Of a stretch of 64,000 nt of DNA, positions 1,133 through 55,624 are shown in pieces (within the stretch, counting starts at the first letter, position 1; each line of letters opens with the position of its first letter). The stretch comes from a virus. Taxonomy: Duplodnaviria > Caudoviricetes. Made by a program: the position numbers and the translations under genes. A model generated the notes under the pieces. The model searched no databases. It saw nothing but the letters and a program-made list of their open reading frames with translations, and was not told the origin of the DNA. The stretch covers positions 64,001 to 128,000 of the IMG/VR virus record IMGVR_UViG_3300029288_000081; one strand, written 5' to 3'.

Positions 1133-1485
1133 CGGCCAGCATCCCTTCGGCTCCGGTTCCACTCGCTGAGCATCCGCGCTGCGGCTTCGAGATCGTCGCC
1201 ACCGCGCAGGCGCTCGTACTCCTCACGTTGACGAGCATCGAAGGCGGCGAGGTCCTCCTCGAACTTCTCTTCGATCTGCTCGATGTGCGCCTGGTGCGCC
1301 TGGATGGCTCCGTCGAGGCGTTCGTCGATGAGGCGCTCGCCGGGGCCCGCGTCGATGCCGGTGACGATGTCCGGCTGCGGTCCGGGGCCAGGGCCGACGC
1401 ATCGGCTGCCGATCACCCCGCCGACGACGAGCAGGATGAGGGCGACGACGCCGAGAAGGATCGCTTGGGTCCGCGTGATGGTCAT
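1129..1485 (-). CDS. N-terminal TM anchored coiled-coil protein (possible spanin-like)
   Basis: MTITRTQAILLGVVALILLVVGGVIG TM then charged helix; ATGA overlaps on both sides. Confidence 0.6.
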   Translation of the reverse strand: MTITRTQAILLGVVALILLVVGGVIGSRCVGPGPGPQPDIVTGIDAGPGERLIDERLDGAIQAHQAHIEQIEEKFEEDLAAFDARQREEYERLRGGDDLEAAARMLSEWNRSRRDAGR

Positions 1486-2948
1486 GCCTTCACCGCTCCT
1501 CTGTGCCAAAGCTCGTGCGGGTCAAGCTCATCGGGCCAGATCGTTTCGGCGTTGTACTTTGCGCCAATCAGGTCTACGCCGGTCATGTCCGTGCTGCTCA
1601 AGTCCACGTTGCTCAGGTCTGCGTTGCGCAGGACCGCGTTGTTCAGGTAAGTGTTGCGCATGACCGCGTAACGCAGATCCGCATCAGCCAGGTTCGCGTC
1701 GGTCAAGTTCGCGTTGGCCATGTTCGCGCCGGTCAGATCTGCCCCGGCCAGATCCTTCCCCGTCAGGTTCACGTTGGCTAGGTTCACACCGGACAGGCTC
1801 CTCCCCTTGAGGCTCGCTCCTGCCAACAGAAGACCTCGGACGTCGCCGCCCTTCGCCTTGTCGATGAACTCGACGACCATCGTGCGGATCAGCTCGACGA
1901 CCTCCATGACCTCCGCCTGCTCGCGGAGCGGAGGGTCGTTCTTCTGGCCCTCCGTGAACACGTAGTCCACGAACGCCGGATCCCCGATGTTCGAGTTGGT
2001 CTTGCCGAAGATCTGCGCGAACGCCTTGCGTGCCGGCTTCCACTCCATCGTGACGTACGGAACCCCGTCGGGGTCGCGGAGCGAGTAGATGACGCTCTCG
2101 CCGCGATCGATGGCGCTCTTGTACGAAGGGACGCAGTGCGAGAGGAAGCCCTTTTCGCATTCGAGCTGGCGCTTCTCCCTCAGCTCCTCGACGGCCCAGC
2201 CGCTCTTGAACTTGTAGACGACCTCTCCGTGGTGAACCTTCTTCTTCTCACGGAAGTTCGCGCTCGCGTCGAAGACGTCGGCGAGGGACATCTTCATGAT
2301 GTCTGTCCCAGTCGACTTCGCCCACTGTGCGATGAGGTTGCAGGAGCGTCGGAGCCTGTAGAGAGCTTGCACGTAGAAGTCGTACTCGGCGCGCTGGGCC
2401 AGAGGTCCTCCGCCGTCGATCTCGCTGATCGTGTGCTTCGACAGCTTGCTCAGTTCACGTGCCACCCATGGGAAGGTGCCGTCTGCATCGCTCGGCTCAC
2501 GGATGGCACTGTTGAAGCGAGGGAAGCTCTCCGCTCCGATCAGCTCCAGGACCAGTTCGAGTCTTTCACGCAGTGTCGACGCAGGCCTCTGCATGACCTG
2601 CACGCGCTTTTCCACCTCCGGGTCGCCGAACCACCAGTAGCCGAGCTGCTCTCGGTACGAGACGTCGGCCAGTGGTGGCTGCGTGCTGGGCATGATGAGC
2701 CCCGCGTGAAGCTGTCCTCCGTTGCCGAACATGGAACGGAGGCGGCTCGTCATCCGTGTGAACATCTCGCCCCAGACGGGGCTGCCCTGGGCGGCGAGCG
2801 TGTCTTCGAGGTCGTACTCGGGGTTGTCGATGCCGATGGTGTTGAAGATCACGCTGAGCGTGTCGAGCACCACCCACGGCTGCTTCTCGCCGTACGTCTT
2901 GACGATGTACTTGAGCCGATCGATCGGCGCGTTGGGGGTCAGTGACAC
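1482..2948 (-). CDS. PcfJ-like domain protein with C-terminal pentapeptide repeats
   Basis: ECEKGFLSHCVPSY...IYSLRDPDGVPYVTMEW resembles the PcfJ-like domain; ADLTG/ANLTD/ADLRY/ADLSN pentapeptide repeats. Confidence 0.75.
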   Translation of the reverse strand: MSLTPNAPIDRLKYIVKTYGEKQPWVVLDTLSVIFNTIGIDNPEYDLEDTLAAQGSPVWGEMFTRMTSRLRSMFGNGGQLHAGLIMPSTQPPLADVSYREQLGYWWFGDPEVEKRVQVMQRPASTLRERLELVLELIGAESFPRFNSAIREPSDADGTFPWVARELSKLSKHTISEIDGGGPLAQRAEYDFYVQALYRLRRSCNLIAQWAKSTGTDIMKMSLADVFDASANFREKKKVHHGEVVYKFKSGWAVEELREKRQLECEKGFLSHCVPSYKSAIDRGESVIYSLRDPDGVPYVTMEWKPARKAFAQIFGKTNSNIGDPAFVDYVFTEGQKNDPPLREQAEVMEVVELIRTMVVEFIDKAKGGDVRGLLLAGASLKGRSLSGVNLANVNLTGKDLAGADLTGANMANANLTDANLADADLRYAVMRNTYLNNAVLRNADLSNVDLSSTDMTGVDLIGAKYNAETIWPDELDPHELWHRGAVKA

Positions 2949-2965
2949 GGGCTCCCCCGGGCGGC

Positions 2966-4243: not shown

Positions 4244-4276
4244 GGCCGCCATCCTACCCCGAGACTGGCTGTCGCG

Positions 4277-4726
4277 TCAGCCGGGATCGCTCGGAGGATC
4301 CGATGCCGGAGGCTCGCTGTCCGCTGGCGCAGGGGCCGTCGCTCCGGTGTACTTGGACACGAGCGAGCGCACGATGTTCGGGATCTGCGTCACGCTGTCC
4401 TTGACCGCGCCGTAGAGCTGGCCGCTGAACCCGCCCGAGAGCCCGAACCACATCATGCGAGCGACTGCGACATCAGGCACCCAGTTGGGTGCCGGAATGC
4501 TCGTGACCAGGCCGAAGAGGCTGCCCACTGCGAACGGGTGCCACTTGAGCGTCGAGGACCAGAGCCGGTACCACGTCGGCTGCTCCTTCTCGGGGGTCCC
4601 AGCAGGCACCCAGATATGAAGCAACCGCTTGGTCGCCGTGCCGCCCAGGTACACGCAGAACGCGACCGAGAGGAAGGACCAGAACTGCGTGATCCAGTAG
4701 ACGACCTTGTCGGTGTTCGGGTCCAT
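4277..4726 (-). CDS. small multi-TM membrane protein, holin-like
   Basis: About three hydrophobic segments (FWSFLSVAFCVYLGG; FAVGSLFGLV; MMWFGLSGGFSG), 149 aa, leaderless-type promoter TACCAT-N6-ATG. Confidence 0.55.
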   Translation of the reverse strand: MDPNTDKVVYWITQFWSFLSVAFCVYLGGTATKRLLHIWVPAGTPEKEQPTWYRLWSSTLKWHPFAVGSLFGLVTSIPAPNWVPDVAVARMMWFGLSGGFSGQLYGAVKDSVTQIPNIVRSLVSKYTGATAPAPADSEPPASDPPSDPG

Positions 4727-4745
4727 CCCCGTATGGTAGCGCAGA

Positions 4746-6932
4746 TCAGCGTCGCGACGTACGCCGCTCGGAGCGCCTGTTGCGTCGCACCCTCGTCGGC
4801 CCAGCGTTCGCCGCCAGGAGCGCGAGCGCGCCGACGGCGCCGATCCCAAGCCACGCCTGGCTCGACAGGCCCATGACGCCGGCCTCGTCGCCCATGCCGC
4901 CCAGGCCCGTCTTCGAGGTGTCCGCCAGGAGCGCAGCGAGCGGGTTCCCGATCGTGTCCCGCTCCTGGTCCGCCTTCTCTCCACCGGACGGCTCGGTCCA
5001 GGTGCCCCACTGCCGATCACAACCGCCAGCGCCGGCCCGGTAGCACGTCTCGCGCTCGCGCGACTTCGTGAGAGCCGCCTGCGCCGCCGAGCGAGCTAGC
5101 GCACGGCCCGCCGGTGTCGTCGGCTGCATGTCGCGGAGCAGTGAGACCAAGCGCTGGCCCGCCTGCACCATCGAGCCGCGGATGTTGTTGCGCTTGACCG
5201 AGTCGGAGTAGTCGGTCGCCTTGAGGTTGCCGTACTGCGAGTCGAGGTAGTTCTTTGCGATGGTCACCTCTTCCAACAGGGCCCTCGCGAGGGGCGCCTC
5301 GGCCTGCGTGTTGGCCTTGTCGATCACGACGGCCTGCTTGTACACGCTGACGAGCGGGCCGATCACCCTGTCCTGCTCGTGCGCGGCCTTGTCGTTGCCG
5401 TGGTCCTCGTTCAACGCGAAACGACCGCATCCGGTCTGGTCGTAGAGGTAGCAGAGCTTCCTGCGGATGGCAGAGAGGAGAGCCTGCTCGGTGAGAACTG
5501 CAACGGGGCGCACCAGCTTCTTGTCCCCCGAGTTCTGCGCGAGCACGAGGGCTTCGCGGAGGCACGCCGCGAGCGCTGCGCCAGCGGCAAGGATCGACTG
5601 CCGGGTGTTGTTGCGCTTCAGCGCGTCGGACCACTTGGTCGCCCTGTAGTGGTCGAACTGTCCGTCGACGTAGCCCTTCATGGCCGCACAGATGCGGAGC
5701 TTGGCGGTGATGAGCGGCTCGTACGCGGCCACCTCGCCGCGGGTAGACAGGGTCCGAGCGAAGTGTGCGTAGGCGGAGATGAGCGGCATCGTGGTGCTCG
5801 CCATCTCCTGGGCCGCCTTCACGTCAGGCTGATCTTCATCGAGCGCGAACGTGCCACACCCGGGCTCGTTCAGGAAGAACCCGCGCCACCGGTCGATCGA
5901 AGCGTTGAGCGCGGCCAGGGTGAGCTTTCCGACGGCGCGCATGCTCGTCATGCTGCCGAAGCTGTACGCGGACGCCCAGACGGTCTGGAGGCAGGCGACG
6001 AGAGTCCGCCCGTCGGCAAGGATCGACTGCCGGGTGTTGTTGCGCTTCAGCGGATCGTTGTTCGTGGCCCTGTAATGCCCCCACTGCCCGTCGATGTAGG
6101 ACTTGAGGAAGGTGCAGGGCCGCAGCATGGCGGCGAGGAACTTCTCGCCGTCGGCCTGCGCAAGAGCCCGCCTCGGGCCTCCGACCTTGGTCACCGCCTG
6201 CATGTAGGCGGCCACGAGCGGTACGATCACTCGGGCCTGCTCCTGGGCGCCCTTCGCGTCGGGCTGATCTTCGTCGAGCGCTTGGGTGCCGCAGCCGCGC
6301 TCGTTGTTGAGGAAGCAGATTCTGCGAGTGATCGCAGAGTCGAGTGCCCGCACGATCGACTGAGCGATGAGCGTCGTCGCCTGGTTGTTCGGCGACTGCA
6401 CGATCGCTTCCGCGTAGGTGGCCGCCAGCGCAGCGCCGCCGGCCAAGATCGACTGCCGGGTGTTGTTGCGCTTCACCAGATCGTTGTTCGTCGCCTTGTA
6501 CTCGTCGAACCACCCGTCGATCTGTGCGCGGGACACGTCTGCCGCGGCCTGAAGCGACGCGGCAGGATCCGTTGGGGCCCCCAGCTCCCGAGCCTGGGCC
6601 AGGCATGCGGCGATCTGCCCTTCGAGCCGCGTCATGCTCGTTCGGTCAGGCGTCGGCAGACTTCGGAGCTGGACGAGGCTCGCTCGCAGGGCATCACACT
6701 CGGCGGCCTTGGCCGCCCTGGCCACCTGCGGGTCGACGGCCGTCGGTCCGGTGGGCAGGGTGCTCTGTGCCGAGGCCGAGGACGGGCTCAGGAGCAGGTA
6801 CGCAGCTCCTCCGGCGGCAACGAGGCCGATCCCGCCCAGCACCAGCATCTTCTTCTTGGACGACGGAGCGGCGGGCGCGGCATCGTTCCGGCGCAGGCGC
6901 CGGCTGGACCTTCTCTTGAGTCGACGGGCCAT
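4746..6932 (-). CDS. helical four-repeat protein with TM helices and Arg-rich tails at both ends (728 aa)
   Basis: Starts MARRLKRRSSRRLRRN then TM; four repeats with Y(K/R)AT..D.(V/L)KRNN.R.S and GC..; ends TM + VRRNRRSERRTSRR. ATG overlaps the stop of 6932-7018. Confidence 0.8.
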   Translation of the reverse strand: MARRLKRRSSRRLRRNDAAPAAPSSKKKMLVLGGIGLVAAGGAAYLLLSPSSASAQSTLPTGPTAVDPQVARAAKAAECDALRASLVQLRSLPTPDRTSMTRLEGQIAACLAQARELGAPTDPAASLQAAADVSRAQIDGWFDEYKATNNDLVKRNNTRQSILAGGAALAATYAEAIVQSPNNQATTLIAQSIVRALDSAITRRICFLNNERGCGTQALDEDQPDAKGAQEQARVIVPLVAAYMQAVTKVGGPRRALAQADGEKFLAAMLRPCTFLKSYIDGQWGHYRATNNDPLKRNNTRQSILADGRTLVACLQTVWASAYSFGSMTSMRAVGKLTLAALNASIDRWRGFFLNEPGCGTFALDEDQPDVKAAQEMASTTMPLISAYAHFARTLSTRGEVAAYEPLITAKLRICAAMKGYVDGQFDHYRATKWSDALKRNNTRQSILAAGAALAACLREALVLAQNSGDKKLVRPVAVLTEQALLSAIRRKLCYLYDQTGCGRFALNEDHGNDKAAHEQDRVIGPLVSVYKQAVVIDKANTQAEAPLARALLEEVTIAKNYLDSQYGNLKATDYSDSVKRNNIRGSMVQAGQRLVSLLRDMQPTTPAGRALARSAAQAALTKSRERETCYRAGAGGCDRQWGTWTEPSGGEKADQERDTIGNPLAALLADTSKTGLGGMGDEAGVMGLSSQAWLGIGAVGALALLAANAGPTRVRRNRRSERRTSRR

Positions 6933-7018: not shown

Positions 7019-7050
7019 GCGGTCGAGCGTAACACGAGACGCCCCACCGG

Positions 7051-14233: not shown

Positions 14234-14570
14234 CCTGCCGGAGCACGTGAGCGACGAAGGCGGCAGGAGGTCGCACACTGTGCTCGCGCAGGTAGTGGCC
14301 GAATCCTTCCGGCCACACGTAGACGCCGTCGGAGTAGTCGGCGCTGCCGTTGTTCCAGATGCGACAGATGCGGCACGTAGACATGCCGCGGTACTGGTCG
14401 CCAAGGAAGCGACTGTCCGAGACGTACCTGATCACCTTGTCTCGCTCGGCCCAGTTCCAGCTCGGGTCGACGAAGGCACGCACGTCCGGGTACTTGCCAT
14501 CGTCGTTTCGCGGGTCGAGGCTCTTCCAGAATCCGACCTCGATCGGCTGTCGCCGCGCCGTGTAGCTCAT
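14220..14570 (-). CDS. hypothetical protein with CxxC and WPEG..HY..EH motif
   Basis: YRGMSTCRIC...NGS...YVWPEGFGHYLREH; ATGA coupling. Confidence 0.65.
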   Translation of the reverse strand: MSYTARRQPIEVGFWKSLDPRNDDGKYPDVRAFVDPSWNWAERDKVIRYVSDSRFLGDQYRGMSTCRICRIWNNGSADYSDGVYVWPEGFGHYLREHSVRPPAAFVAHVLRQVSSR

Positions 14571-15322
14571 CGACCTCTCCGGCGGTTGCGCTTCACGTGC
14601 TTGCTCCTGCCGTAGGCCCACCAGGCGAAGGCGGCGCCAGCTCCGAGGACGGCGAGCCCAGGTACGTAGATGGGCACGGTCGTGGCCGCGCGAGCCCGAC
14701 CCGCCAACGACGGTCCTGCGACGCGCCCCTCGTCCTCGATCGTCACGAAGTCAGCAGGCCACGAGTTCGTCTGGCTCTCGGTGATGTACCAGTTGCCGTC
14801 TCGCAGGACGATGGCCGAGGACGGGTGCCGCAGCAGGTAGTTGGTCGTGACGGGCGCGTTCGCGAAGTTGGCGGCGCGCGGCACCGGGTTCGGCAGCCGG
14901 GCGGTCGCGAACTTGACGATGACCTCGCGGACCGCGGGACGAATCTCCGACCACGGCATCGTCGCTGCCCGGTCTCGAACCGCGAGCCTTCGTTCCGCGC
15001 ATTCATCCCTGCCGTGGTAGGCGCCGCCGGGACGGCACTTCGTCCCGTCGCGACGCCAGATGGGGTTCACCGGCTGACTGTGCGCCTGAACGAGCCCCTT
15101 CAGGCTGCTGCCGCGGCGCATCGCCAGGAGCTGCGCGTACGTCCACGCGGTCGCCTCGTTGTTGCCTGCCTCGTGCTGAACAGAACGGGCCAGCCACAGG
15201 AGATCGTCGGGCGTCATCTGGTACGACCAGCCGCCCTGGGTCTTGATTTGCCCAGGTGTCGGGATCGAGCTGACGTCCACCGGCTCTTCGCTCTGTCCCA
15301 GGCCCATCATCGCGTACGACAT
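14567..15322 (-). CDS. SleB-like cell-wall hydrolase with C-terminal TM anchor and basic tail
   Basis: DLLWLARSVQHEAG catalytic-helix motif; C-terminus LAVLGAGAAFAWWAY + VKRNRRRGR; N-terminus MMGLGQ. Confidence 0.65.
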   Translation of the reverse strand: MSYAMMGLGQSEEPVDVSSIPTPGQIKTQGGWSYQMTPDDLLWLARSVQHEAGNNEATAWTYAQLLAMRRGSSLKGLVQAHSQPVNPIWRRDGTKCRPGGAYHGRDECAERRLAVRDRAATMPWSEIRPAVREVIVKFATARLPNPVPRAANFANAPVTTNYLLRHPSSAIVLRDGNWYITESQTNSWPADFVTIEDEGRVAGPSLAGRARAATTVPIYVPGLAVLGAGAAFAWWAYGRSKHVKRNRRRGR

Positions 15323-16109: not shown

Positions 16110-17320
16110 TCCGCTTCCGCTTCCAGGAAGACGAACGCCGCTTCATCCGCCTCCACGCAGAGCTGTTCGAGAAGCTCGCACGCGCCGGCCTCTCGGAGGT
16201 GGTCGGCAGCGAGACGCTGCGCAACGTCTCCAAGATCGAGCAGATGGCGCACATGGAGGGCATCCGACAGGGCCTGGCCATGGCCGCGATCGCGCGGCAG
16301 ATGAACGAGGAAGAGGCGCTGCCGATCCCTGACCCGTACGGCCAGAAGGCATTCCAGCTCCACGCGCTGATCTACGGCAGCTCGGACACACCGCTCCGCG
16401 CGATCGAGAAGGAGTGGCTCGATAAGCTCGGCCTCGATCCCGAGCACTTCGCCAAGTCCTGGCTCGACGACAAGCCCATGCGCTACGCGCCCGCGACGCT
16501 TCAGGAGCTGGATGGGACCGTGCCGCCCATCGCCCCGATGATGTCGATCCGCGCCCCCCACAAGCCCATGCCCGTGAAGCCGTCCGCTCCCGGCATGACC
16601 GACCTGATGGTCACCCCCGAAGACATCGACGACTACCTGCCTCCCTCTGAGGCCATGCACGGCGCCGAGGTGACCGTGCCCGAGCCGTGGCAGAAGGGCG
16701 AGTACGAGCCCGACGATCCCGAGCCGTTCGATACCGGCGTCGCATCCGGCTATCGGCCGCAGTCGCAAGCCGGGACGCAGTGCCACGACGTCGAAGAGAT
16801 CCGGCCCGAGAGCCCCGAGTTCCTCGACATCGTCCGAGACGCCATCCAGACGAAGAAGAGCGCCGGCTGGGACCCGAAGACCTGGCAGGACATCATCCTC
16901 GACCTGCACCGTCACATGGGCGTGGACGCGGGCTTCCTCGACATCCAGCTCACCACCCACGTCGGACGCACCGTGCTCGACCAGTGCGGCCTCGTCGGGA
17001 TGGCGCCTCCCGACATGATGAGCTTCGAGTTCCTCAGCAACCTGCCCGGCAAGAGCGGCGGCATGCTCGAAGAAGACCGTCGCACGCTCGAACGGATCGA
17101 CGAGGGCGTCACCAGTCACGACTTGTCTTCGATCACGGAGCTTGGTGAAGGGGAGGACTTCGAGTTGCTCGCCAACATCTCGCCGCCGCTCGCCGGCAAG
17201 GTGCCGTCGCCGCCGCTCATGGTGCGCAACGAGGACGGTGAGCTTCACTCCTCGCTCGGGGAGCCCGGGGAAGGGACGATGGGCTTCGGGAAGGCCCACG
17301 ACTGGGACGACGAGATCTAA
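16106..17320 (+). CDS. acidic Pro-rich hypothetical protein
   Basis: GTGA overlap; typical codon usage. Confidence 0.7.
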   Translation: MIRFRFQEDERRFIRLHAELFEKLARAGLSEVVGSETLRNVSKIEQMAHMEGIRQGLAMAAIARQMNEEEALPIPDPYGQKAFQLHALIYGSSDTPLRAIEKEWLDKLGLDPEHFAKSWLDDKPMRYAPATLQELDGTVPPIAPMMSIRAPHKPMPVKPSAPGMTDLMVTPEDIDDYLPPSEAMHGAEVTVPEPWQKGEYEPDDPEPFDTGVASGYRPQSQAGTQCHDVEEIRPESPEFLDIVRDAIQTKKSAGWDPKTWQDIILDLHRHMGVDAGFLDIQLTTHVGRTVLDQCGLVGMAPPDMMSFEFLSNLPGKSGGMLEEDRRTLERIDEGVTSHDLSSITELGEGEDFELLANISPPLAGKVPSPPLMVRNEDGELHSSLGEPGEGTMGFGKAHDWDDEI

Positions 17321-17988
17321 CTCCGATGCCTGTTCCGGCGCACAGGACGCCGCAGGAGCCACCAGAGCAGCCCGAGGGTACCGATGGCGCCAGCGGCGGC
17401 GAGAGCCAGCCTACCGGCGCCCTCGGGAGGGCCCAGGGAGGCTCCGCCTCCACCTCCCCCGGTGACGGGCGCGATGGACGTAGGTGGGGCGCCGGCCAGG
17501 AAGCGCTGCACGGCGGTCGCCATCGCGCTGCCCCACGGGGCTGCGCCGGTGGGGGTGAAGTGGGGATTGGTGGGGCTCGCCCTGGGAAGATTCAGCGGTG
17601 TGACCGGGTAGGCGTCGATGTAACGGTCCCCGAAGATACGTGCGTTCATGGACCGCAGCGCGTCCCCTTCCGCGTGGTCACGCGCGGTCGGGTACTGCGG
17701 TGGACCGCTCATCAGCACCGGAGGAGCCACGTCCATCTTCATCTTGCGAAGCGCCGCCTCCGTTGCTGGAGTCGCCAGGGAGTTGTGGCCGAAGATCAGC
17801 AGGACAACGTCGGCACCCCTCGCGGCCTGTGTGTACTGATCCCAGTAGGGGGCTCGCGTCTGCACGATCGGAGACTTGCTGTCGTTGTGGACTACCGTGA
17901 CCGAGTGGCCGGCGGCAACGAGGGCTCGCTTCGCCGCGTTGCCTGGAGTCCCGGCTTGAGAGTCGCCCCAGATGAGAACCTTCGCCAT
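17317..17988 (-). CDS. SGNH/GDSL hydrolase with C-terminal TM anchor and basic tail
   Basis: IWGDSQ block I, IFGHN block III, PHFTPTG catalytic His; Gly linker, TM, VRRNRHRS. Confidence 0.75.
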   Translation of the reverse strand: MAKVLIWGDSQAGTPGNAAKRALVAAGHSVTVVHNDSKSPIVQTRAPYWDQYTQAARGADVVLLIFGHNSLATPATEAALRKMKMDVAPPVLMSGPPQYPTARDHAEGDALRSMNARIFGDRYIDAYPVTPLNLPRASPTNPHFTPTGAAPWGSAMATAVQRFLAGAPPTSIAPVTGGGGGGASLGPPEGAGRLALAAAGAIGTLGLLWWLLRRPVRRNRHRS

Positions 17989-18459: not shown

Positions 18460-18801
18460 CTAGTCGCCTGCCTGCCGCAGAACGTGCATACGCGGCTGAC
18501 CGTCGGTGTCTGCAACGGTCAAGCAAGCTCCGGCTGACATGCGGCTCATGACACCTGGCGCGTCAGCCCGAAACGCAGCGACGCTCACCGTCTCGTGGTC
18601 GCCTCTTGCGTCCCAGAGGTCGGGCCAGGAGCGCTCCGACTCGCGCTCGACCACTTCGCGCTCCTCATCGGTGAGCGTCTCGTAGAGATCTTCGAGGCTC
18701 CCGAGCGCAGCTCGATCGTCCTCTGGCTTCCAGCCTGGCTGACGCCGAGCTTCACGCAGGTCATCCACGAGCTGCTGGTAGATGGCGAGCGGAGAGTTCA
18801 C
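18460..18801 (-). CDS. hypothetical protein with weak C-terminal Phd/YefM-like segment
   Basis: GTGA overlap; ETVSVAAFRADAPGVMSRM..G..LTV resembles the Phd N-terminal fold. Confidence 0.45.
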   Translation of the reverse strand: MNSPLAIYQQLVDDLREARRQPGWKPEDDRAALGSLEDLYETLTDEEREVVERESERSWPDLWDARGDHETVSVAAFRADAPGVMSRMSAGACLTVADTDGQPRMHVLRQAGD

Positions 18802-20678
18802 GGGCCGAGCCTCCGCGGACGCACGCTCTTGCCCTGGCACGCCACGCACTGGACGTCCTTGCTGTCGTACTTGATCGTCCTGCCGAACACCGTCTTGGCG
18901 ATCGCATCGGCACGTCGTTCGACGCCCGCCGGCAGGCGCTGCCCGAGCATCTTCCCGAGATTGTTGCCGTAGCGGTAGTCGAGCGCGTGCCCGAACTCGT
19001 GTGCCATCAGGCCGCGGATGTTCGCGACCGGCAGGTCCTCGGTCTTCGCGGCGAAGGCGACGCGGATGGGGCTACCGTCCATGCAGTAGCCGAACTGCCG
19101 CTCGGAGCCGTGGCCGTTGTCGCCGCCGGCCTTCTCGTCGTGGTGCAGTTCCAGGTCGCCGAAGTCGGGGAACTGCTCGACGAGCGCGTCGAAGCACTCG
19201 TCGAAGGCGGCGCGGACCTTGATCATGGAGTGGCCGTTCGGCGCCAGCCCTGCTTTCGCTCTCGCCTCCATCTTCGTCAGCCGCGTGTAGTAGTCGGGGA
19301 ACTCGCGCAGGTGGTCCATGGCGATCTTGCCGGCCTCGCGCATGTCGCCCGTGTGCTCCTGCTCGACCTCGATTCCCATGCGCAGCTCGTCCATGTCGAC
19401 CGTCGGAGATCCGAGGTCACGCCAGACGGTGAGCGTCTGCCGTTCGGTGGGCTTCATAGCGCTCTCCTGAGTGTGCAGCGTCGGAACGCGACCGTTTGGA
19501 GTCCACAGCTCTCCCGACGCACCCGTTGAACCGAGGACAGGCTCTGGCAAAGTCTTGCCGTCGATAGCGATCACTTCAACCGGCGAGTGGGCGAGCATCG
19601 ACACTTCTGACTGGTCGGTCCCGTAGTACATGAACGACGTGAATCCAAACTCCCAGTCCACGTCTTCCGGTTGCACGACAGCCGTCAGAACGACCTCGCG
19701 CTCGTCCTCGCCAACCGTCTTGTTGTAGACGCCAGCGCCACGCCGGTCGTACGACCAGGACTTCCCCAGCTTATCGAAGCGGATCTTCTCGTGAGACGGC
19801 ACGGACACGGCTCGGTGGACCTCGATGCTACCGTTGCGCCATGCCTTCTGAGCAAAGCCAGCATACTCGGAGGCCCTATCTTCCAGGGTCTCCCTGTCGT
19901 CGTCCCAGTCCAAATCGTTCACGTATCGCTTCGCCCACCCGACAGCGGCTGATTCGCTGCTCAGGAACGCGGGGAACTTCGCGCGCTTTGCGACGCGTCC
20001 CGAGTTCGACGCCATCGTGATCGGCTTCATGACGAACGCGTCTCGGAGGCTACCGTGCCCGAAGTCGATGATGACCGGCCGCTTGCCGGACGCGTACCCA
20101 AGGTTGCCGTGGTGCAGGTCGACGACCTCGACCCCGCGCCACGAGAGCCACTTCACGCCATCGCGGATCTGACGAACGAAGGCTACAGACTCCTCGCTGG
20201 GGAGAAGGGCTTCCTCGCTCGGGTGAAGTACCGCCTCCTGAAGCAGGCGAGCGCGAGGGCCAGCCAGCGTCCTGCTCAGGTTCGTCTTGTTGGCGGTGGT
20301 GACCGGCTCCATCACGATGGCGAACAGGGGGCGTGACCTGTGGACGTCCGTCTCGTCTTCGTAGACGTCCCCGGGCAGACGGTGCACCGAGCGGACGTAC
20401 GGCAAGCCGGTGGGTGCGGTCCCCGTCTTCTTGACGTAGTCGAAGATCATCTTGCAGACGCGCGCGTCCTCTTCGTCGTCGGTGACCTTGAGCACGTCTC
20501 CGCTCGGCAACGCGAAGGCGTGGGCGTAGTGTCCCAGGCCGAGCTGCTTCAGCGGCAGCGTCCGCCCGTCTTCGCTGTGTAGGCCGAGGCTCGCGAGGAA
20601 GTTCGGGGCGCGCAGCAGCGTCGCCTCGATGTCTTCGATGGTCGCACGGTTGGCGGTGAGGCTGACGATCTTGGGCAC
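18798..20678 (-). CDS. polyvalent protein: kinase-like + ADP-ribosyltransferase-like + DUF5661-like + zincin peptidase domains
   Basis: Kinase: LGLGHYAHAF, VLKVT, DLHHGNLG, IIDFG. ART-like: VHRAV, KSWS, QSEV. DUF5661-like: ELRMGIEVEQEHT...AMDHLREFPDYYTRL. Zincin: AHEFGHALD...ERRADA. Confidence 0.75.
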   Translation of the reverse strand: MPKIVSLTANRATIEDIEATLLRAPNFLASLGLHSEDGRTLPLKQLGLGHYAHAFALPSGDVLKVTDDEEDARVCKMIFDYVKKTGTAPTGLPYVRSVHRLPGDVYEDETDVHRSRPLFAIVMEPVTTANKTNLSRTLAGPRARLLQEAVLHPSEEALLPSEESVAFVRQIRDGVKWLSWRGVEVVDLHHGNLGYASGKRPVIIDFGHGSLRDAFVMKPITMASNSGRVAKRAKFPAFLSSESAAVGWAKRYVNDLDWDDDRETLEDRASEYAGFAQKAWRNGSIEVHRAVSVPSHEKIRFDKLGKSWSYDRRGAGVYNKTVGEDEREVVLTAVVQPEDVDWEFGFTSFMYYGTDQSEVSMLAHSPVEVIAIDGKTLPEPVLGSTGASGELWTPNGRVPTLHTQESAMKPTERQTLTVWRDLGSPTVDMDELRMGIEVEQEHTGDMREAGKIAMDHLREFPDYYTRLTKMEARAKAGLAPNGHSMIKVRAAFDECFDALVEQFPDFGDLELHHDEKAGGDNGHGSERQFGYCMDGSPIRVAFAAKTEDLPVANIRGLMAHEFGHALDYRYGNNLGKMLGQRLPAGVERRADAIAKTVFGRTIKYDSKDVQCVACQGKSVRPRRLGP

Positions 20679-28118: not shown

Positions 28119-31100
28119 CTACCCGCCCGAGCGCTGTCGGACAACACCAACGAGGTCCATGGTGTACTTCTGAGCGTCGGCCACGGTGTGAAAGCCCGCC
28201 TTCGCGGGGATGCCGGGGAATCCGCTGGTCGAGACGTAGAAGTTCCCGTCGCTGCCGGTGATGGCGATGGCGAACTCGGCGTCGTGTCGGTCGTCGACCG
28301 CTGTGCCGTCTCGGTGGAGACGCAGGTACCACTCGGTGCCGCTGCTCATGAACCAGACGTAGATCTTGTCGGTCGCGACCGCCTTGCCCTCCTTCAGGAG
28401 GTACGTCTTCGCTTCGCCCAGAGACTCGTCTCGCTGGCGGCGGCGATCGTAGTGGTCCATCCCACCCTGGTAGCGCATCACCTCTGCGCCGCGCTGGCCC
28501 GCGTAGCCCTTGCGCAGCACCCACTCCTTGCCGGAGCGCGTCCAGGTGAAGACGTGGATGCCTTCGGGGGTCGTCGCCGCCTGCCTCACACGAGGGTCCT
28601 GCGGGACGGTGGCAGGATCCCACGTCTGCGACAGGAGCCGTGCGTCATCGTCCGTGATGCCCTTGAACGCACCGGCCGCAAGAGCGGTGTCGTGAAGCTG
28701 CACGATGAGCTTCGGCTTCAAGATGAGCGACGGCCTCCACGGCGACGAACTCCTGTTGTATGCACCCAGCATGCTTTCTACGTCACGCTGAAGCAGTTCG
28801 CCGCGACGGCCCGCCTCGATCGCCACGTGCTTGAGGGTGTCGGGCTCGTTGTTGAGTTCCGCCTGGCCGGTGAGGCTTCTTCCCGTGTACCACTCCAGGA
28901 CCGCCGTGACGCGGCCGACGATGATGTCCCACGGCGTCGACTTGGTGGCCTCCTTTTCCTTCCTGATCTCCGCGAAGCGAGCGCGAGTCTCGGCACGGAT
29001 CGTCTTGAGCTGCGCCTGCACCAGCTCCAGCATCCCGCGGTGAGCCGCCTTCATGTTCCGCGTCAGCTGGTTCGCGAACCCGCTGTCGTGGTCCATGAAG
29101 CCCTGGAGGTGCGTGATCTCGTGGATCGCCGTCGAGCACAGCTCCTCGACACCATCGATCGTCGACAGGTCGATCCTGTCTCCCGAGTGCGTCCAGACGT
29201 GCTCGTGCGCCTCGTAGTCGTAGCGCCCCCTCTCGAACTTCAGAGGGTTGATCATCAACCAGTCGGTGTCTTCCCTGTTCGTGTACGCGCCCAGCACCGG
29301 CAGCTTGTTGATGCCGTCCAGCATCATGATGAAGCCGACGCCGAAGGGGCGGAACTCTCCCAGGACGTTGAGGCCGAACTTGCAGGCTTCGGTCCATGCA
29401 CGGAGCAGGACGATGTACTTCGCCTCCATCGTCTCCGGTTCGAGGCCGGCGGGCGGCTTCCAGAACGGCATCTGGTTCGCCATGAAGAGGTCCGGCTTCC
29501 ACATCGCGTAGCGGACGGCCGTGGCGATCTGCTCGGTTGTCGTCGCCTGCGTCGCGGAGTGCTTGATGAGGCGGCTCGCGGTCTCGCGCGAGGACTGCAT
29601 GCGCTGGGCAGTCTCTTCTTCCGGGGTCACCGGAGGCGGCGCCGCAGCCGCATCCTCTTCCATCGCCTTCGCGGCCTCCTCGGCAGCCTCCTCCGCGTCG
29701 GCGACCGTCGGCGTCTTCTTCTGCGCCTGACGCTTCGCGAGCTGGTCGGCGATCTTGGCCACCGCCTTCGCGGCCACCTCAGCCGCCCGGCCCTCACGCA
29801 CTTCGATCGCGCCGCTTCCGCGGTAGATCTTCTCCGCCTTCCACTTCTTCGATCGAAGGAGTGCCTCGGGCTCGACCGCGAGACGCTCCTTCAGCTTCTC
29901 GACGAAGCTGCGCGCGGGTCCGATGAGCGAGTTGCGGCTCGCGTCGAACACATACTTGGCCGGCGCGTTGACGTCCACGTACACGACGCCGGGGATGTCG
30001 TTCGACCACTCCTCGAACATATAGACGCCACGAGCGCGCACGTAGAGGCCCTTGTTCGCCCGAGCGTTCCGGTGGTGGTGAGCGACGATCTCGCCGACCG
30101 TGTTGCCGTTCTCGTCAGCGATCCCCACCTTCGACACTTCCTCGCCGCCGATGAGATCGGCAGCGACCGTCTTGCCGTTCACGCGAACGCGAACGTTCGG
30201 CAGGTACGAGCGACCCAGGAGCTGCTGTGCGTACGTCTCAGCAGTCGTCTGCGTCAGAGGCATCCACACCGTCACGCGCGTACCCTGGATCGGACTAGCG
30301 CTCTGGTGGATGCCCGGCGGCTCCATCACGCTCTCGTGCTGTCCGAAGGCTACGAGGTCTCGCGTCTCGACCTTCCAGCCGAGCCACGGGAAGAGGATCA
30401 GGTTCTTCGCGTCTCCGAAGCCGCCTACCGCGTCATGCCCCTTCACGGACCCGCCACGCGTGAGCAAGGCTCGACGGAGAATGTCTGCGTCCATGCCGAC
30501 GCCGTTGTCGTAGGCGGTGACGACCATCGCCTCTGCCTCGGCACCGGTCTCGATGTCCTTGTACGTCCCGGCAGCGATGTTCCAGTCCATCTGCGTCGCC
30601 TGCGCGTCACGAGAGTTCTGGGCGACCTCTCGCCACCACGCGAGTTCCCAGTTGCGGTAGCGCTGGAGGAGCTTGCTCCAGAAGTCCGGCGAGACCCCCA
30701 TCGCGACCAGCGCGTTGCGGCTGAGAGGCGGATGCTTCGCGTCCCCGATGATGTCGCCCGACGGGACAGCCGAGGGGAACCTGTGACGCACCGGCTCTCT
30801 CAGGACCTGGAAGAAGAAGATGCTGCCCTCGACGAACGGCATGTCCATGCCGCCCTCGAAGAGCGGGTGCCACCCGTCGAGCGCCTTGGCGACCGCGTAC
30901 GCCGGGAAGGCGCTCCCGGTCTGGTAGAACCCCGGCGAGCTGAGGAACGCGTCCACGTCGTCGATCGCCTCGATGACGATCGGACTCTCCCTCGTCCCCG
31001 TCCCGCTCGTCTTCTCGAACGTGCGACCGCTCGGGCCCACGTCGAAGTTCCGGGTCATCGAGCGACGGCTCGACCGCCGCTTGCTCGACCGGCGGGTCAC
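28119..31100 (-). CDS. GHKL (Hsp90/MutL-like) ATPase fused to a zincin-like HExxH domain, with Arg-rich N-terminal tail
   Basis: REVAQNSRDA, YDNGVGM, GGSVK..VGGFG, GTRV; AIHEITH..DHD..F; starts MTRRSSKRRSSRRSMTRN. Confidence 0.8.
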   Translation of the reverse strand: MTRRSSKRRSSRRSMTRNFDVGPSGRTFEKTSGTGTRESPIVIEAIDDVDAFLSSPGFYQTGSAFPAYAVAKALDGWHPLFEGGMDMPFVEGSIFFFQVLREPVRHRFPSAVPSGDIIGDAKHPPLSRNALVAMGVSPDFWSKLLQRYRNWELAWWREVAQNSRDAQATQMDWNIAAGTYKDIETGAEAEAMVVTAYDNGVGMDADILRRALLTRGGSVKGHDAVGGFGDAKNLILFPWLGWKVETRDLVAFGQHESVMEPPGIHQSASPIQGTRVTVWMPLTQTTAETYAQQLLGRSYLPNVRVRVNGKTVAADLIGGEEVSKVGIADENGNTVGEIVAHHHRNARANKGLYVRARGVYMFEEWSNDIPGVVYVDVNAPAKYVFDASRNSLIGPARSFVEKLKERLAVEPEALLRSKKWKAEKIYRGSGAIEVREGRAAEVAAKAVAKIADQLAKRQAQKKTPTVADAEEAAEEAAKAMEEDAAAAPPPVTPEEETAQRMQSSRETASRLIKHSATQATTTEQIATAVRYAMWKPDLFMANQMPFWKPPAGLEPETMEAKYIVLLRAWTEACKFGLNVLGEFRPFGVGFIMMLDGINKLPVLGAYTNREDTDWLMINPLKFERGRYDYEAHEHVWTHSGDRIDLSTIDGVEELCSTAIHEITHLQGFMDHDSGFANQLTRNMKAAHRGMLELVQAQLKTIRAETRARFAEIRKEKEATKSTPWDIIVGRVTAVLEWYTGRSLTGQAELNNEPDTLKHVAIEAGRRGELLQRDVESMLGAYNRSSSPWRPSLILKPKLIVQLHDTALAAGAFKGITDDDARLLSQTWDPATVPQDPRVRQAATTPEGIHVFTWTRSGKEWVLRKGYAGQRGAEVMRYQGGMDHYDRRRQRDESLGEAKTYLLKEGKAVATDKIYVWFMSSGTEWYLRLHRDGTAVDDRHDAEFAIAITGSDGNFYVSTSGFPGIPAKAGFHTVADAQKYTMDLVGVVRQRSGG

Positions 31101-31999
31101 CTCTGCCCCCAGGACCGAAGCCGGCTCTTGCGCGGTCCGCTGCGGCGCCGGTTCGGCTGCATGCGGCTGCGGATGATGAAGGCGGCGATGGTCCCGGTGA
31201 GCGCGATGCCGCCGGTGATGAGGAGGTACTTCTCGGTCTTCGTGATTCCGTACTTCACGTCACGCTCGGGCTCGGGCGGCTCGTAGGTGCCCTCCTGCCC
31301 GAGCGCATCGATCTCGTCGCCGTCCAGGCCCATGACCGCCAGGGTGCCGGCCATCGACGGTGACAGCGTGTGCCGAGCCATCGGTGTGCCCGGGTTGATA
31401 CGAGCTGCTCCGCGCGAGGAGAAGAACAGCCCCTGCTCATTGAACCATGGCGTGGGGTCCTGGTTGTACAGTGCTTCCGCAGGCGAACGCGGGTACGGCC
31501 CGGGGAAAGGGCTCGTGCCGTCGGGACGCGCCGTACGAATTTCGAGGTGCAAGTGCCGGTTCATCGGTCGCGGATTGCGGCCACCGGCGCGTGCTCGCGC
31601 TGCGAACGTCTCGACCGACTCGCCCGGCAGGGGCGAGAACTGTCCGTTGGTCGTGTTGCCCATGACGCCGATGCGCTGGCCGCCGACCACGGGCTGCCCC
31701 GGTGTCACGGTGACGGAGCCGTCCTTGAGGTGCGCGTAGAGGGCGTACTTGCCGCCGTCGTGACGGATCACGACCGCGTTGCCGTACCCGTTCATCGGAC
31801 TGCCAGGCACGTTCTGGGAGACGAGGGTGACCGTCCCGCCCTTCACGGCGTAGATGGGCTCGTCCTCCCTCGACCGGCGGGTGGAACCGATGTCTAGACC
31901 CGCGTGCATATGGGGGGCGCCCGACGCACGGGAGGGTCGGACCCCGTACGTCGAGACGAGCCTGGAGGTCGAGAGGGCAACGGGCGGTGAGGATGCCAT
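31097..31999 (-). CDS. M23 family peptidoglycan peptidase with C-terminal TM anchor and basic tail
   Basis: HAGLDI, GYGNAVVIRH, YAHL, IGVMGNT, HLHLEIR; TM + MQPNRRRSGPRKSRLR. Confidence 0.9.
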   Translation of the reverse strand: MASSPPVALSTSRLVSTYGVRPSRASGAPHMHAGLDIGSTRRSREDEPIYAVKGGTVTLVSQNVPGSPMNGYGNAVVIRHDGGKYALYAHLKDGSVTVTPGQPVVGGQRIGVMGNTTNGQFSPLPGESVETFAARARAGGRNPRPMNRHLHLEIRTARPDGTSPFPGPYPRSPAEALYNQDPTPWFNEQGLFFSSRGAARINPGTPMARHTLSPSMAGTLAVMGLDGDEIDALGQEGTYEPPEPERDVKYGITKTEKYLLITGGIALTGTIAAFIIRSRMQPNRRRSGPRKSRLRSWGQR

Positions 32000-50581: not shown

Positions 50582-50583
50582 GA

Positions 50584-52262: not shown

Positions 52263-52750
52263 CAGACGAGGTCCTCGTCCTTGATCTCCTCCGTCGTGTC
52301 GACCTTCACGACGTTCGTGAAGACCGGGAGCTTGCCGTCCTCGTCGACCTGGGTGCCGTTCCGGTGGCGGACGGTGACCTTGACGGTCTTGGTCAGGAGG
52401 TGGTCCGTGTTGAAGCCGTCGTCCGTGTACGGGACGCCGGCCGCGTCGAGGAGCATGCGCAGCTCCCAGCGACGCTGGGCGTTCAGGTCGGGCTTGGCCG
52501 GGTCCTTCTCCAGGATGTAGTCCTGGTAGACCCGGCGGCCTGCCTGAGCGGTGTCGCTCGCGTTCTCGCCGTGCAGGACCTGGAACTCCACCATCACCTT
52601 GTCGAGAGGCGGAGTCCCCTTCGTGACGCCCAGGGGGGCCGCCATGATGAGTGCGACGTAGACGCCGGGCGGGACCGGCTCGCGCTTCGGCGGCTTGGTC
52701 GTCGCATCGGGGTCGGTGATCTTGTCGTGATTGACCTTGACTGCGGGCAT
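52262..52750 (-). CDS. single-stranded DNA-binding protein (DUF669-like OB fold)
   Basis: PVPPGVY..I..V.VEFQV..G..GRRVY; acidic tail EEIKDEDLV. Confidence 0.65.
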   Translation of the reverse strand: MPAVKVNHDKITDPDATTKPPKREPVPPGVYVALIMAAPLGVTKGTPPLDKVMVEFQVLHGENASDTAQAGRRVYQDYILEKDPAKPDLNAQRRWELRMLLDAAGVPYTDDGFNTDHLLTKTVKVTVRHRNGTQVDEDGKLPVFTNVVKVDTTEEIKDEDLV

Positions 52751-52753
52751 CGA

Positions 52754-54025: not shown

Positions 54026-54240
54026 TCTGCCCCTTTCTTCTTCTCGCCGTTCACGTGGTAGCCGGCCTGGAACTTCACAAGGTCGGCACGCTTGACTCCG
54101 ATGAAGTCGCCGACCTTGCTCGACTTCAACATCTCGCTCTTGATCCACAGCCAGACCGTTGATCGGTGGACGCCCATCTCCTTGGCGACCTCGCCAGTGC
54201 TCAACAGGCCCGACGCCTGAAACTTCTTGCTCAGGGTCAT
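54022..54240 (-). CDS. excisionase/MerR-like HTH DNA-binding protein
   Basis: LLSTGEVAKEMGVHRSTVWLWIKS..L...KVG. Confidence 0.8.
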   Translation of the reverse strand: MTLSKKFQASGLLSTGEVAKEMGVHRSTVWLWIKSEMLKSSKVGDFIGVKRADLVKFQAGYHVNGEKKKGAE

Positions 54241-54302
54241 GCTTTCCTTGTTTTTCTGGGCGCCCAGCGACACCTTGTATGTCGCGCGCGGAGGGTCGTC
54301 AA

Positions 54303-54554
54303 CTACTTTCGACGCACGTCTTTCAGCTTCTTGACGGGCGCCGGTCCGACCCTCTTCGCTCGAAGATGGGTCACCACCTCGATGGACACCGAGTAGATGT
54401 CCCCGGGCACATCGCGCTCTTTGCGGACCTCGACCTGGAACTGGTCGGCCATGTGTTCGATCTCATCACCGAACACCTTCCTGATGGCTCCATCGACGTC
54501 GACCGCCTCGACCTTCAGGAACTCCCCCGCGCCGTCGTCCACGTAGTAGACCAT
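54303..54554 (-). CDS. hypothetical protein
   Basis: Own TTGACA promoter. Confidence 0.55.
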   Translation of the reverse strand: MVYYVDDGAGEFLKVEAVDVDGAIRKVFGDEIEHMADQFQVEVRKERDVPGDIYSVSIEVVTHLRAKRVGPAPVKKLKDVRRK

Positions 54555-54730
54555 GGGCGACTCTTGTCCGAGACCGCCTCGGCTGTCAACAACTTTCGAC
54601 TCACCGTCGGTTGGTGCCGGATGGTGCCGATCACTGCGAGACGAACGCGGTCAGGAGCGCAAGGACGGTCACGGTCACAACCGACGCGAGAGCGACGAGC
54701 ACGTAGAGACGCGTCTCGCGGTCAGGCTCA

Positions 54731-55624
54731 TCATCGAAGCGCACGGCGCCTGCGATTCTTGGCGACGCCCATGCCGCGGCCGCTCTGGTGGAAGCCCATG
54801 AGGAGCGCCTTCTTGTCCGCGGAGGTCATCAGGTGTCCGAACGCGTCGTAGACAGCCTGCGCCGGGATCTTGAGCGACTTGGCCTTCGTGAAGACGCCGT
54901 CCAGTGAGATGACGCGGTTCGTGGCGATGTTCCTGATGACCTTGGGCGTCTCCTCGATGACACCCCAGATGGCCTTGGACGGGTCGCGCGCGTCGAGCAG
55001 GACCAGGCTTCCCTTCTTGGTGCCGCGTGCCAGCCCCCGGGCGCCCACGTGGCCGATCTTGACGTGCTTGAGGCCGTAGGTGAGCTGTGCCGCATCACCG
55101 GCCTCGTCGCCCAGCTTGGACTTGCGAACCATGTGGCCGAACGCCAGGAGAACGTCGCGCGCGTCGATCCCGAGCTTCTGAGCGATCTTCTGGAACTCGG
55201 CGACCGTCTTGAACACGTCGATGTTTGGGCCGGAGATGTGGATCTTGCCGGCGAGCTTGTCTTCGGGGCCCGCGTACTCCGCTGCCTCTGTGCTGCCGAT
55301 CTTGAGGTAGCCCTTCTCGATGATGGGCGCGGCACCGCTGTTACGCTTCACCCCCGCGCGCCCGAACGCCTGCTCGCCAGCCGACGCCGAGATGCCCTCC
55401 TCACGCAAGATACGCGGGAGCTGCGACAGGGAAGGGAACTCGGTCATCCCCGAGCCGCGCACCACGGCGATTCGCCCGCGGAAGACGGGGTTCGAGCCCC
55501 TGTAGGCGGTCGCCTTGAACCCGGGGCCCGAGATGGAACCAGGCCTGATGGTCACGCGACGGCCGGGGCTGGCAGCGGGGTTGCGGCTGGTGCGACGACG
55601 GCTGGTGCGACGACTTCTCGGCAT
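54731..55624 (-). CDS. basic three-repeat protein with Arg-rich tails at both ends
   Basis: MPRSRRTSRRRTSRN...VAKNRRRRALR; three modules ending (G/K)I.A....AFG; TACACT-N6-ATG. Confidence 0.75.
   Translation of the reverse strand: MPRSRRTSRRRTSRNPAASPGRRVTIRPGSISGPGFKATAYRGSNPVFRGRIAVVRGSGMTEFPSLSQLPRILREEGISASAGEQAFGRAGVKRNSGAAPIIEKGYLKIGSTEAAEYAGPEDKLAGKIHISGPNIDVFKTVAEFQKIAQKLGIDARDVLLAFGHMVRKSKLGDEAGDAAQLTYGLKHVKIGHVGARGLARGTKKGSLVLLDARDPSKAIWGVIEETPKVIRNIATNRVISLDGVFTKAKSLKIPAQAVYDAFGHLMTSADKKALLMGFHQSGRGMGVAKNRRRRALR

Follow-up and report, generated by a model that had tools for sequence, protein, structure and literature searches.

The DNA described here is a window of 64,000 nucleotides, namely bases 64001-128000 of a virus record of 171,466 bp (IMG/VR record IMGVR_UViG_3300029288_000081, 66% G+C). 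The record stems from an uncultivated virus of bacteria and is classed as linear by IMG/VR and as complete by CheckV. In this window, six proteins encoded on the minus strand carry at one or both termini a short tag, which we find to be a genuine module: an Arg-rich tract, often containing RR(S/T)S, with a directional hinge of the form [V/M/I/L/P]-x-x-Asn (hereafter Phi-x-x-N) at the end of the tract nearest to the protein body. Positions below are those of the window, unless they are given as genome positions or with a contig label.

Genes, 246-252 in the whole genome, were called with a codon-bias model trained on that genome itself, and start sites are our own choice unless they are fixed by orthologues. 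Relatives were collected from IMG/VR using a 924-aa late protein as query, which gave five contigs with 36-59% identity to it. Two of these are complete genomes with terminal repeats (161.5 and 159.9 kb) and the remaining contigs measure 153, 298 and 62 kb; three contigs were analysed whole, together with 240 kb of the largest one. The genome under study is denoted G000 and its relatives G001, G003, G004 and G005.

Arg-rich tags on six proteins of the window

A first-pass annotation, made from the letters of the window alone, had listed eight Arg-rich protein ends with an Asn at the junction to the body, and all eight are present where it had placed them. Two of them belong to a 728-aa protein (4746-6932), which was analysed by translation and hydropathy and for which no Pfam family was found. 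Its N-terminal leader MARRLKRRSSRRLRRN (6885-6932) precedes a membrane helix (6789-6845), and its C-terminal membrane helix (4800-4856) is followed by the tail VRRN-RRSERRTSRR (4749-4790). Immediately ahead of this last helix stands the sequence GLGGMG (GLGGMG...VMGL, approximately 4860-4900), an instance of a second motif that is discussed below.

Two smaller proteins combine a helix with a C-terminal tail only. A 251-aa protein (14567-15322) starts with MSYAMMGLGQ (15293-15322) and ends with a helix (approximately 14615-14680) and the tail VKRN-RRRGR (14570-14596); its orthologues in G001, G003 and G004 keep both the MSY start and the helix and end in a short basic cluster without the Asn tail. 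A 223-aa protein (17317-17988) has the GDS(Q) start that is typical of SGNH hydrolases, the corresponding Pfam match being weak (E 0.044), and carries a helix (17353-17409) followed by the tail VRRN-RHRS (17320-17343). Its orthologues either end in ...GRRRR or ...RRRRARA, without the Asn, or possess no helix at all.

The fifth tail belongs to an M23 peptidase (31097-31999; PF01551, E 3.4e-16), which has a C-terminal helix (31172-31228) and the tail MQPN-RRRSGPRKSRLRSWGQR (31100-31162, beginning MQPN-RRRSGPRK). This tail is nearly letter-identical in G001, and the orthologue in G003 ends in ...RRRRR without Asn. Among the tagged proteins of the window, which had been described as effector-like or envelope-degrading, Pfam confirmed an envelope-degrading nature for this peptidase only.

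Directly downstream lies the gene of a soluble 993-aa protein (28119-31100) without any Pfam family, of which the GTG start codon overlaps the stop codon of the upstream minus-strand gene. Its N-terminal leader (V/M)TRRSSKRRSSRRSMTRN (31047-31100) is composed of (V/M)TRRSSKRRSSRRS-MTRN, with F at the junction. The leader reads MTRRSSRRPTRN followed by P in the orthologue of G001 and M..KRTSRPAKRTSRRARLRGN followed by P in that of G004, the latter being rich in KRTSR and ending in LRGN before the P; the orthologue in G003 has no leader. The tail of the M23 peptidase and the leader of this next gene are thus encoded back to back (31047-31162) around a GTGA stop/start overlap, and about 115 bases encode the Arg-rich tag for two different proteins.

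The sixth protein, a soluble one of 297 aa (54731-55624), is again tagged at both ends, with the leader MPRSRRTSRRRTSRN followed by P (55580-55624) and the tail VAKN-RRRRALR (54734-54766). In the orthologous frame of G001, MSSRQRKTSRN is followed by PESKNRRVTIRPG and then by the conserved body, because of which we consider the upstream ATG to be the true start. The C-terminal tail is absent from the orthologues in G001 and G003. Taken over the window, a membrane helix directly adjoins the tail in four of the six tagged proteins; an 18-residue example of a tail is VAKNRRRVRRNRRRSRRS.

Enrichment, conservation and membrane context of the tag

Whole-genome counts show that Asn is enriched directly before basic tails. 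About 23 proteins of G000 end in ...Phi-x-x-N-R-R-R..., most of them encoded outside the window, and the tagged share amounts to about one tenth of the proteome in this virus and in its relatives alike. Each of the 23 tails consists for at least 50% of Arg or Lys after the Asn. Basic runs (at least three Arg or Lys) that start within the last 25 residues are preceded by Asn in 19 of 55 cases (35%), compared to the 3.0% expected from the share of Asn among non-basic residues (binomial P=1.3e-15) and to 4 of 116 basic runs elsewhere in the same proteins. Likewise, N[RK]3 occurs within the last 26 residues of 16 proteins, compared to 2.6 +/- 1.5 (maximum 10) in 2000 shuffles of these C-terminal 26 residues, none of which attained the observed count. 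The Arg codons of the tails are mixed, mostly CGN (CGG, CGT, CGC, AGG, CGA and AGA all occur), indicating that selection acts on the peptide and ruling out a DNA-level repeat as the origin of the tails.

All relatives carry such tails, and the five genomes together hold 70 of them. The consensus around the Asn is [RK][RK]-x-[VMILP]-x-[KPAR]-N-R-R-R: at position -3, V, M, I or L is found in 44 of the 70 tails (22% expected, P=2.9e-13) and Pro in a further 10, whereas hydrophobic residues are depleted at the remaining upstream positions. The Asn also recurs inside tails and inside protamine-like proteins, always after Phi-x-x, as in the NRRRVRRN that is present in four tails or in the TSRN, TRRN and TKRN repeats in L056. 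A strict heptad model, in which the Asn residues of NRRRVRRN would line one face of a helix, was rejected, as the spacing between successive Asn residues ranges from 5 to 12.

The motif is kept among genomes that are only 36-67% identical at the protein level. For two proteins, those at genome positions 53665 and 54150, the orthologues of all five genomes retain the Asn while the residues around it vary. Other orthologues have a plain short basic stop (...KYKKRR, ...RRRRR) in place of the Asn tail, and this interchange indicates that the Asn tail is a labile extension of an ordinary juxtamembrane basic patch. The proposal of a terminal tag shared by scattered proteins that are unrelated to each other, with Phi-x-x-Asn at the junction of tail and body, is thereby upheld, by its enrichment over shuffles and its occurrence at both termini, and the comparison of orthologues agrees with the expectation that relatives keep the motif while the body domains vary. 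Also in line with the first reading of the window, the tails are absent from replication genes (helicase, primase, methylase and integrase).

At the N-terminal side, the three leaders of the window are real coding sequence: the orthologues keep leaders with their own start codons, and they restore both of the two leaders that the gene caller had clipped. A scan of upstream starts yielded about 19 convincing leaders of the form M-x-(K/R)RTSR...-Phi-x-x-N followed by the body, this list having been picked by eye from a noisy scan in which Arg-rich off-frame open reading frames (ORFs) produce many false leaders. It includes a paralogue family of G004 and a conserved late membrane protein at genome position 161688, of which the true ATG lies 27 codons upstream of the called start. 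The hinge has the same N-to-C polarity in leaders and in C-terminal tails and is always situated at the end of the tract nearest to the body; the hinge Asn is followed by Arg in the C-terminal tails, and among the 19 leaders 8 have Pro and 3 have Gly at this place. In leaders as in tails, Phi-x-x-N units are repeated with a variable spacing of 5-12 residues.

The first-pass annotation had overlooked that most tails are juxtamembrane. Of the 70 tails, 47 come directly after a hydrophobic 17-mer helix; counted from the first charged residue beyond that helix, the Asn stands at a median distance of 7 residues. By Kyte-Doolittle hydropathy, a crude predictor, 15 tail proteins of G000 have a helix at most 45 residues upstream of the Asn, and six, two of them in the window, have none. 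The helix-bearing proteins possess hydrophilic N-termini (MSY...) and no N-terminal signal peptide. Of 252 proteins, 19 start with MSY, and the codon used for this Ser is AGC, TCG or TCC.

A second motif, G(L/M)G(Q), accompanies the tag. G[LM]GQ is observed 12 times with 1.2 expected, and [MLI]xG[LM]G 18 times with 5.4 expected, and proteins with G(L/M)G tend to be those that carry tails (odds ratio 9, P=4.5e-6). It always lies across the helix from the Asn-Arg element, at a variable position before the helix which is often N-terminal. In the proteins at genome positions 154329-155585 and 158770-161544 the order is reversed, N-(K/R)RR-VRRN standing before the helix and GMG or GLG after it. Because the two motifs occupy opposite sides of the helix, this grammar marks the two faces of a membrane. 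G(L/M)G(Q) resembles the sites cut by adenain, and its Gln could equally be a transglutaminase substrate.

Phi-x-x-N sites without an Arg tract behave differently. Those that had been pointed out as opening proteins or separating domains (LTPN, LTAN, MASN, WTPN, MAAN, LSRN and an internal VKRN) do occur in the sequence, but are not enriched beyond controls for turn sequences. By chance alone, a protein would contain the broad motif about 1.5 times; when the last 30 residues are excluded, [MLVWI]x[PARSK]N is found 117 times, compared to 96 +/- 9 in shuffles; and the enrichment of Phi-x-x-N[GP] (z 5.6) is matched by the controls Phi-x-x-D[GP] (z 6.1) and Phi-x-x-S[GP] (z 3.6), so that it is an ordinary turn signature. 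These figures give no statistical support to the cutting of polyproteins at such sites.

Several of the tail-less sites lie in a 626-aa multidomain protein (18798-20678, minus strand) with a Pfam DUF5661 domain and a C-terminal zincin (HEFGH); a kinase-like domain ascribed to it earlier was not confirmed by Pfam. The LAPN|G in front of the zincin (19236-19247) is the sole tail-less site that is kept, in three fused orthologues. It reads LMAN|G in G001 and LAHN|G in G005, where the upstream domains are different, and in G003 and G004 the zincin opens a separate gene a few residues past the point corresponding to LAPN|G. We treat this apparent conservation as an anecdote rather than a statistic, and the other sites of the protein are not distinguishable from chance. 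A 488-aa protein (1482-2948, minus strand), which has LTPN at residues 3-6, pentapeptide repeats and a weak PcfJ-like match below the Pfam cut-off, has neither an Arg tract nor a membrane helix and was not counted as tagged. It is one of three PcfJ-like paralogues (1482-2948, L001:1360-3033 and L007:3943-5472), two just below and one just above the Pfam cut-off; two of them have C-terminal pentapeptide repeats and the third has a long Asn-Arg/Ser tail instead.

Late block, candidate enzymes and the virus clade

The tails are concentrated in a plus-strand late block at 143-171 kb of the genome, outside the window, which holds 15 of the 23. There, they adjoin the two most conserved proteins and a 128-aa Arg/Ser core-like protein. 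The two conserved proteins, of 291 and 319 aa, are encoded next to each other (genome 162554-164563), are 58-83% identical to their counterparts in the relatives and belong to no Pfam or PHROGs family. The 319-aa protein has 264 related metagenome clusters, all unnamed, and was modelled with low confidence as a long helix with a jelly-roll-like beta-sandwich; the model of its neighbour has a pLDDT of 32. For the conserved late protein, a PDB profile search gave nothing, a fold search of the ESM Atlas returned unnamed viral clusters only and the matches of a wide VIA search were swamped by the N-terminal helix.

Two genes of the late block are candidates for a processing enzyme. A protein at genome 143545-144141 (L005:16045-16641) is 65-82% identical across the relatives and has C119, H157 and D174 invariant in 25 homologues. 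Eight of these 25 match PF01841 Transglut_core (best E 2.6e-6), the copy of G000 remaining below the threshold, and the protein has an Atlas feature score of 0.97 to Transglut_core clusters. A PDB profile search with this transglutaminase-like family returned spurious repeat-protein matches only. Proteolysis, deamidation and cross-linking are all possible activities of the protein. The second candidate, a SprT-like zincin with the motif HEVAH (genome 170286-171233, L007:6786-7733; Pfam E 6e-14), ends the late block, and its homologue in G001 (154755-155798) is fused behind an N-terminal Arg leader that ends in VARN followed by P. Either enzyme may read the Asn hinge, or G(L/M)G, or neither.

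Members of the families C13 (legumain, PF01650) and C5 (adenain, PF00770) were not found in a search of the own genome, a search that is insensitive. As the same type of search with Transglut_core also missed the existing transglutaminase-like gene, such blanks, those for hallmark genes included, weigh little. The first-pass annotation had named no cognate protease in the window; a legumain-like or adenain-like one was not found either, and the two candidates lie outside the window.

PHROGs and Pfam scans covered 34 proteins of more than 350 aa and most proteins of the late block. They identified helicases, a weak primase-like match, RtcB, a methyltransferase, an integrase, glycosyltransferases, a MoxR-like ATPase, NUDIX, the M23 peptidase and the SprT-like zincin, and no terminase, portal, HK97 capsid, prohead protease, tail or baseplate gene, of which remote homologues could escape these scans. 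Pfam searches of the own genome with Terminase_6N, Phage_capsid, Capsid_NCLDV and FtsK (PF01580) gave nothing at their low sensitivity, the last of them aimed at a packaging ATPase of the FtsK/HerA type, as internal-membrane jelly-roll viruses (Varidnaviria-like) have it. Compared with 50,697 phage records, 22 kb of the DNA (megablast) and the 728-aa protein (tblastn) had no match and the helicase had distant matches only. The genome belongs to an undescribed clade, for which a tailless, membrane-containing particle is a reasonable guess from this gene content; the full-text literature yielded no description of the clade or of the motif, which is not proof of absence.

DNA that is nearly identical to the window is present in two landfill metagenome studies, one of which is possibly its source, and window shares of 0.35 and 0.20 were found in freshwater and activated-sludge sequencing runs; among the runs listed, with shares of at least 0.2, none was of RNA. 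Bins of metagenome-assembled genomes that contain relatives of the conserved late protein carry conflicting labels (Planctomycetota, Lentisphaeraceae, Deltaproteobacteria and Bifidobacteriaceae), probably by binning noise, and we therefore claim no host. The start of the window encodes tRNA-Lys(UUU) (12-84) and tRNA-Tyr(GUA) (300-379) on the minus strand. An RtcB-type ligase of 705 aa (L003:12994-15111, genome 48994-51111) has a PHROG match that is split by an insert of about 330 aa, which resembles PhoH or ribonucleotide reductase and may be an intein or an inserted domain.

Interpretation of the tag

We favour, with a probability of roughly 45%, that the tag is an uncut polycationic anchor which at the same time serves for incorporation into the particle. 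On single-pass membrane proteins the tag, sitting 5-10 residues after the helix, would hold that end at the cis face of the membrane, towards the cytoplasm or the genome, with the MSY...G(L/M)G(Q) end opposite; on soluble proteins, the same tract would recruit the protein to the same polyanion. This polyanion would most likely be the packaged DNA of a particle rich in small membrane proteins and protamine-like core proteins. The Asn hinge would then act as a structural or recognition element, and removal of the tail would not be needed. We infer that the tags bind DNA or lipid, that the tagged proteins are present in the virion and that the particle has an internal membrane. This reading is preferred because most tails adjoin a membrane helix with G(L/M)G on its far side, because 15 of the 23 tails lie in the late block beside a core-like protein, and because of the exchange for plain basic stops among orthologues, the awkwardness of cleavage before a Pro and the recurrence of Phi-x-x-N within tails and protamine-like proteins, which fits an integral unit of the binding tract. 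An invariant Asn for base contact is also part of the Arg-rich motif (ARM) of the Rev protein of human immunodeficiency virus (ARRNRRRR) and of the basic regions of bZIP proteins. The emphasis that the first-pass annotation had put on cargo loading is weakened, since the membrane helices point as much to topology or anchoring.

That the whole pattern would be a by-product of composition or annotation, i.e. of the high G+C content, of wrong reading frames or of the Shine-Dalgarno sequences of downstream genes, is hardly credible. Off-frame ORFs of G000 are indeed Arg-rich, and strings resembling a Shine-Dalgarno sequence (AGG or GGAG) occur in the last 21 bases of 11 of the 15 tails with a close following gene; however, close gene pairs in general have such strings almost as often (76 of 132), which rules out this origin, and neither the preference of Asn for C-terminal over internal basic runs (35% compared to 3%), nor the failure of all shuffles to reach the observed count, nor the mixed Arg codons, nor the conservation between divergent genomes would be expected from composition. 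More can be said for a purely topogenic signal for the host membrane, an exaggerated positive-inside stop-transfer sequence without a role in the virion or at the DNA, by which wall hydrolases and lysis, exclusion or remodelling factors would be held with their N-terminal domains outside, yet we consider it improbable. Two thirds of the tails follow a membrane helix, a plain basic stop suffices in orthologues, and the cell wall has to be within reach of the M23 peptidase and the possible SGNH esterase. Such a signal nevertheless leaves unexplained the invariant Asn and the hydrophobic residue at -3, the tags on helix-free proteins (28119-31100 and 54731-55624 in the window; genome positions 155669, 164579, 167443 and 168969) and the leaders of the soluble G004 paralogues, and it would require N-terminal domains of 200-650 residues to cross the membrane without signal peptides.

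The strongest competitor of the uncut anchor is a tract that loads cargo on the DNA or the particle and is then cut off at the Asn by a viral protease or by self-cleavage, much as adenovirus trims its DNA-bound precursors at either end or as T4 and phiKZ use capsid-targeting sequences; we regard it as doubtful, though clearly less so than the topogenic signal. Several observations speak for trimming and, by the same token, weigh against an uncut anchor. A single polarity, with Phi at -3 and Asn at 0 and the hinge body-proximal, is shared by the approximately 19 leaders and the 70 tails, as a directional recognition or cleavage site predicts and as a tract for binding alone would not require, and orthologues without a tail stop about where a cut would leave them. 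The late block encodes a conserved Cys-His-Asp enzyme (genome 143545-144141), and the SprT-like zincin (genome 170286-171233) is a further candidate. In addition, the variable spacing of the units, 5-12 residues, fits a discrete linear site rather than one helix face, the LAPN|G linker before the zincin of the 626-aa protein is conserved, and N|P and N|G at 11 of the 19 leader junctions recall sites of self-cleavage by Asn cyclisation, as known from FlhB/YscU (N|PTH) and reovirus mu1 (N|P). A further difficulty for the anchor is that with a host-derived membrane like that of PRD1, tails on the cytoplasmic side would face the shell and not the DNA. The junctions themselves, however, do not bear out the Asn-specific removal of tails that the first-pass annotation had conjectured: the residue after the Asn is inconsistent, tails having Arg there and 8 of the 19 leaders Pro, and most endopeptidases disfavour cutting before Pro. 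Moreover, tail-less internal sites are no richer than generic turn sequences, cutting at every Asn would shred the protamine-like proteins to 6-12-mers and the Cys-His-Asp enzyme is tied to the Asn hinge no more than to G(L/M)G(Q). That no C13 or C5 member was found is a weak point against trimming, given that the search missed the transglutaminase-like gene. An extended form of trimming seems unlikely to us: a new clade of apparently tailless membrane viruses of 150-300 kb would load more than 20 proteins on the genome by a tag at either terminus, trim them at the Asn through the transglutaminase-like enzyme or self-cleavage and use G(L/M)G as a second class of sites on the opposite membrane face. 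This would amount to a DNA-scaffolded maturation in the style of adenovirus, in viruses of bacteria.

Arg-rich ends and anchors made of a helix and a basic tail are of known kinds. Terminal tracts in which Arg makes up at least 50%, frequently in RR(S/T)S units, are shared with the genome-binding ends of the hepatitis B virus (HBV) core protein (C-terminal domain), of nodavirus and single-stranded DNA virus capsid proteins (N-termini), of adenovirus VII and mu and of the Rev ARM, the latter and the bZIP basic regions also having an Asn embedded in an Arg run; a further likeness is the separate small protein of Arg and Ser only beside the most conserved late genes. Here, as far as can be read from sequence, the ends differ in occurring on about 10% of the proteome, at either terminus, mostly after a helix and with a fixed Phi-x-x-N hinge. 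Tail-anchored proteins likewise combine a C-terminal helix and a basic cluster with the lack of an N-terminal signal peptide. In the LPXTG/sortase and PEP-CTERM/exosortase systems the motif precedes the helix and the tail is short and unpatterned, whereas here the patterned element follows the helix and is also found on soluble proteins and at N-termini.

Among maturation systems, adenain (clan CE) trims pVI, pVII, pX, pIIIa and pTP of adenovirus at (M/I/L)xGx-G or (M/I/L)xGG-x, so that there too unrelated proteins share a site in which a hydrophobic residue stands at -3 relative to the key residue and have basic extensions at both termini; [MLI]xG[LM]G looks like these very sites. The present system differs in having Asn instead of Gly as key residue, no Peptidase_C5 match, a bacterial host and a transglutaminase-like candidate rather than one of clan CE. 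The capsid-targeting and prohead-protease sites of T4 and phiKZ (L/I-x-E, S/A/G-x-E) are also short terminal signals with one fixed end residue that could sort proteins, but they are N-terminal only, non-basic, end in Glu and need an HK97-type prohead, while the present signals end in Asn, are mostly C-terminal and occur in a genome among whose scanned proteins PHROGs and Pfam detected none of these components. Asn peptide lyases (the capsid proteins of nodaviruses, tetraviruses and reoviruses; FlhB/YscU) have the Asn as sole fixed junction residue, comparable to the N|P junctions of the leaders; they need a folded active site within one family, unlike the portable linear tag found here with its N|R in C-terminal tails. 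For a fixed hinge in both orientations on about one tenth of a viral proteome, together with a second motif on the opposite membrane face, we found no description.

If the tag directs proteins into the particle, it would provide a sequence rule for listing the virion or core proteins of a whole clade of large uncultivated viruses (the most conserved late protein of which accounts for at least 264 protein clusters), the structural genes of which are otherwise unrecognisable, and it would be a portable handle that can be fused to a reporter. Should the Asn hinge be a processing site, its maturation chemistry would be one undescribed for bacterial viruses; should it be a DNA-contacting unit, membrane proteins would, unusually, also serve to condense the genome. 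Both outcomes touch on the organisation of a genome of this size within a particle without detectable terminase or portal.

The Arg tracts (e.g. 4749-4790 and 55580-55624) are built of RRSS, RRTS and KRTS units. R-R-x-S/T is the consensus of basophilic kinases, and it is conceivable that phosphorylation tunes the charge of the tag, as it does in the HBV core protein or in protamines.

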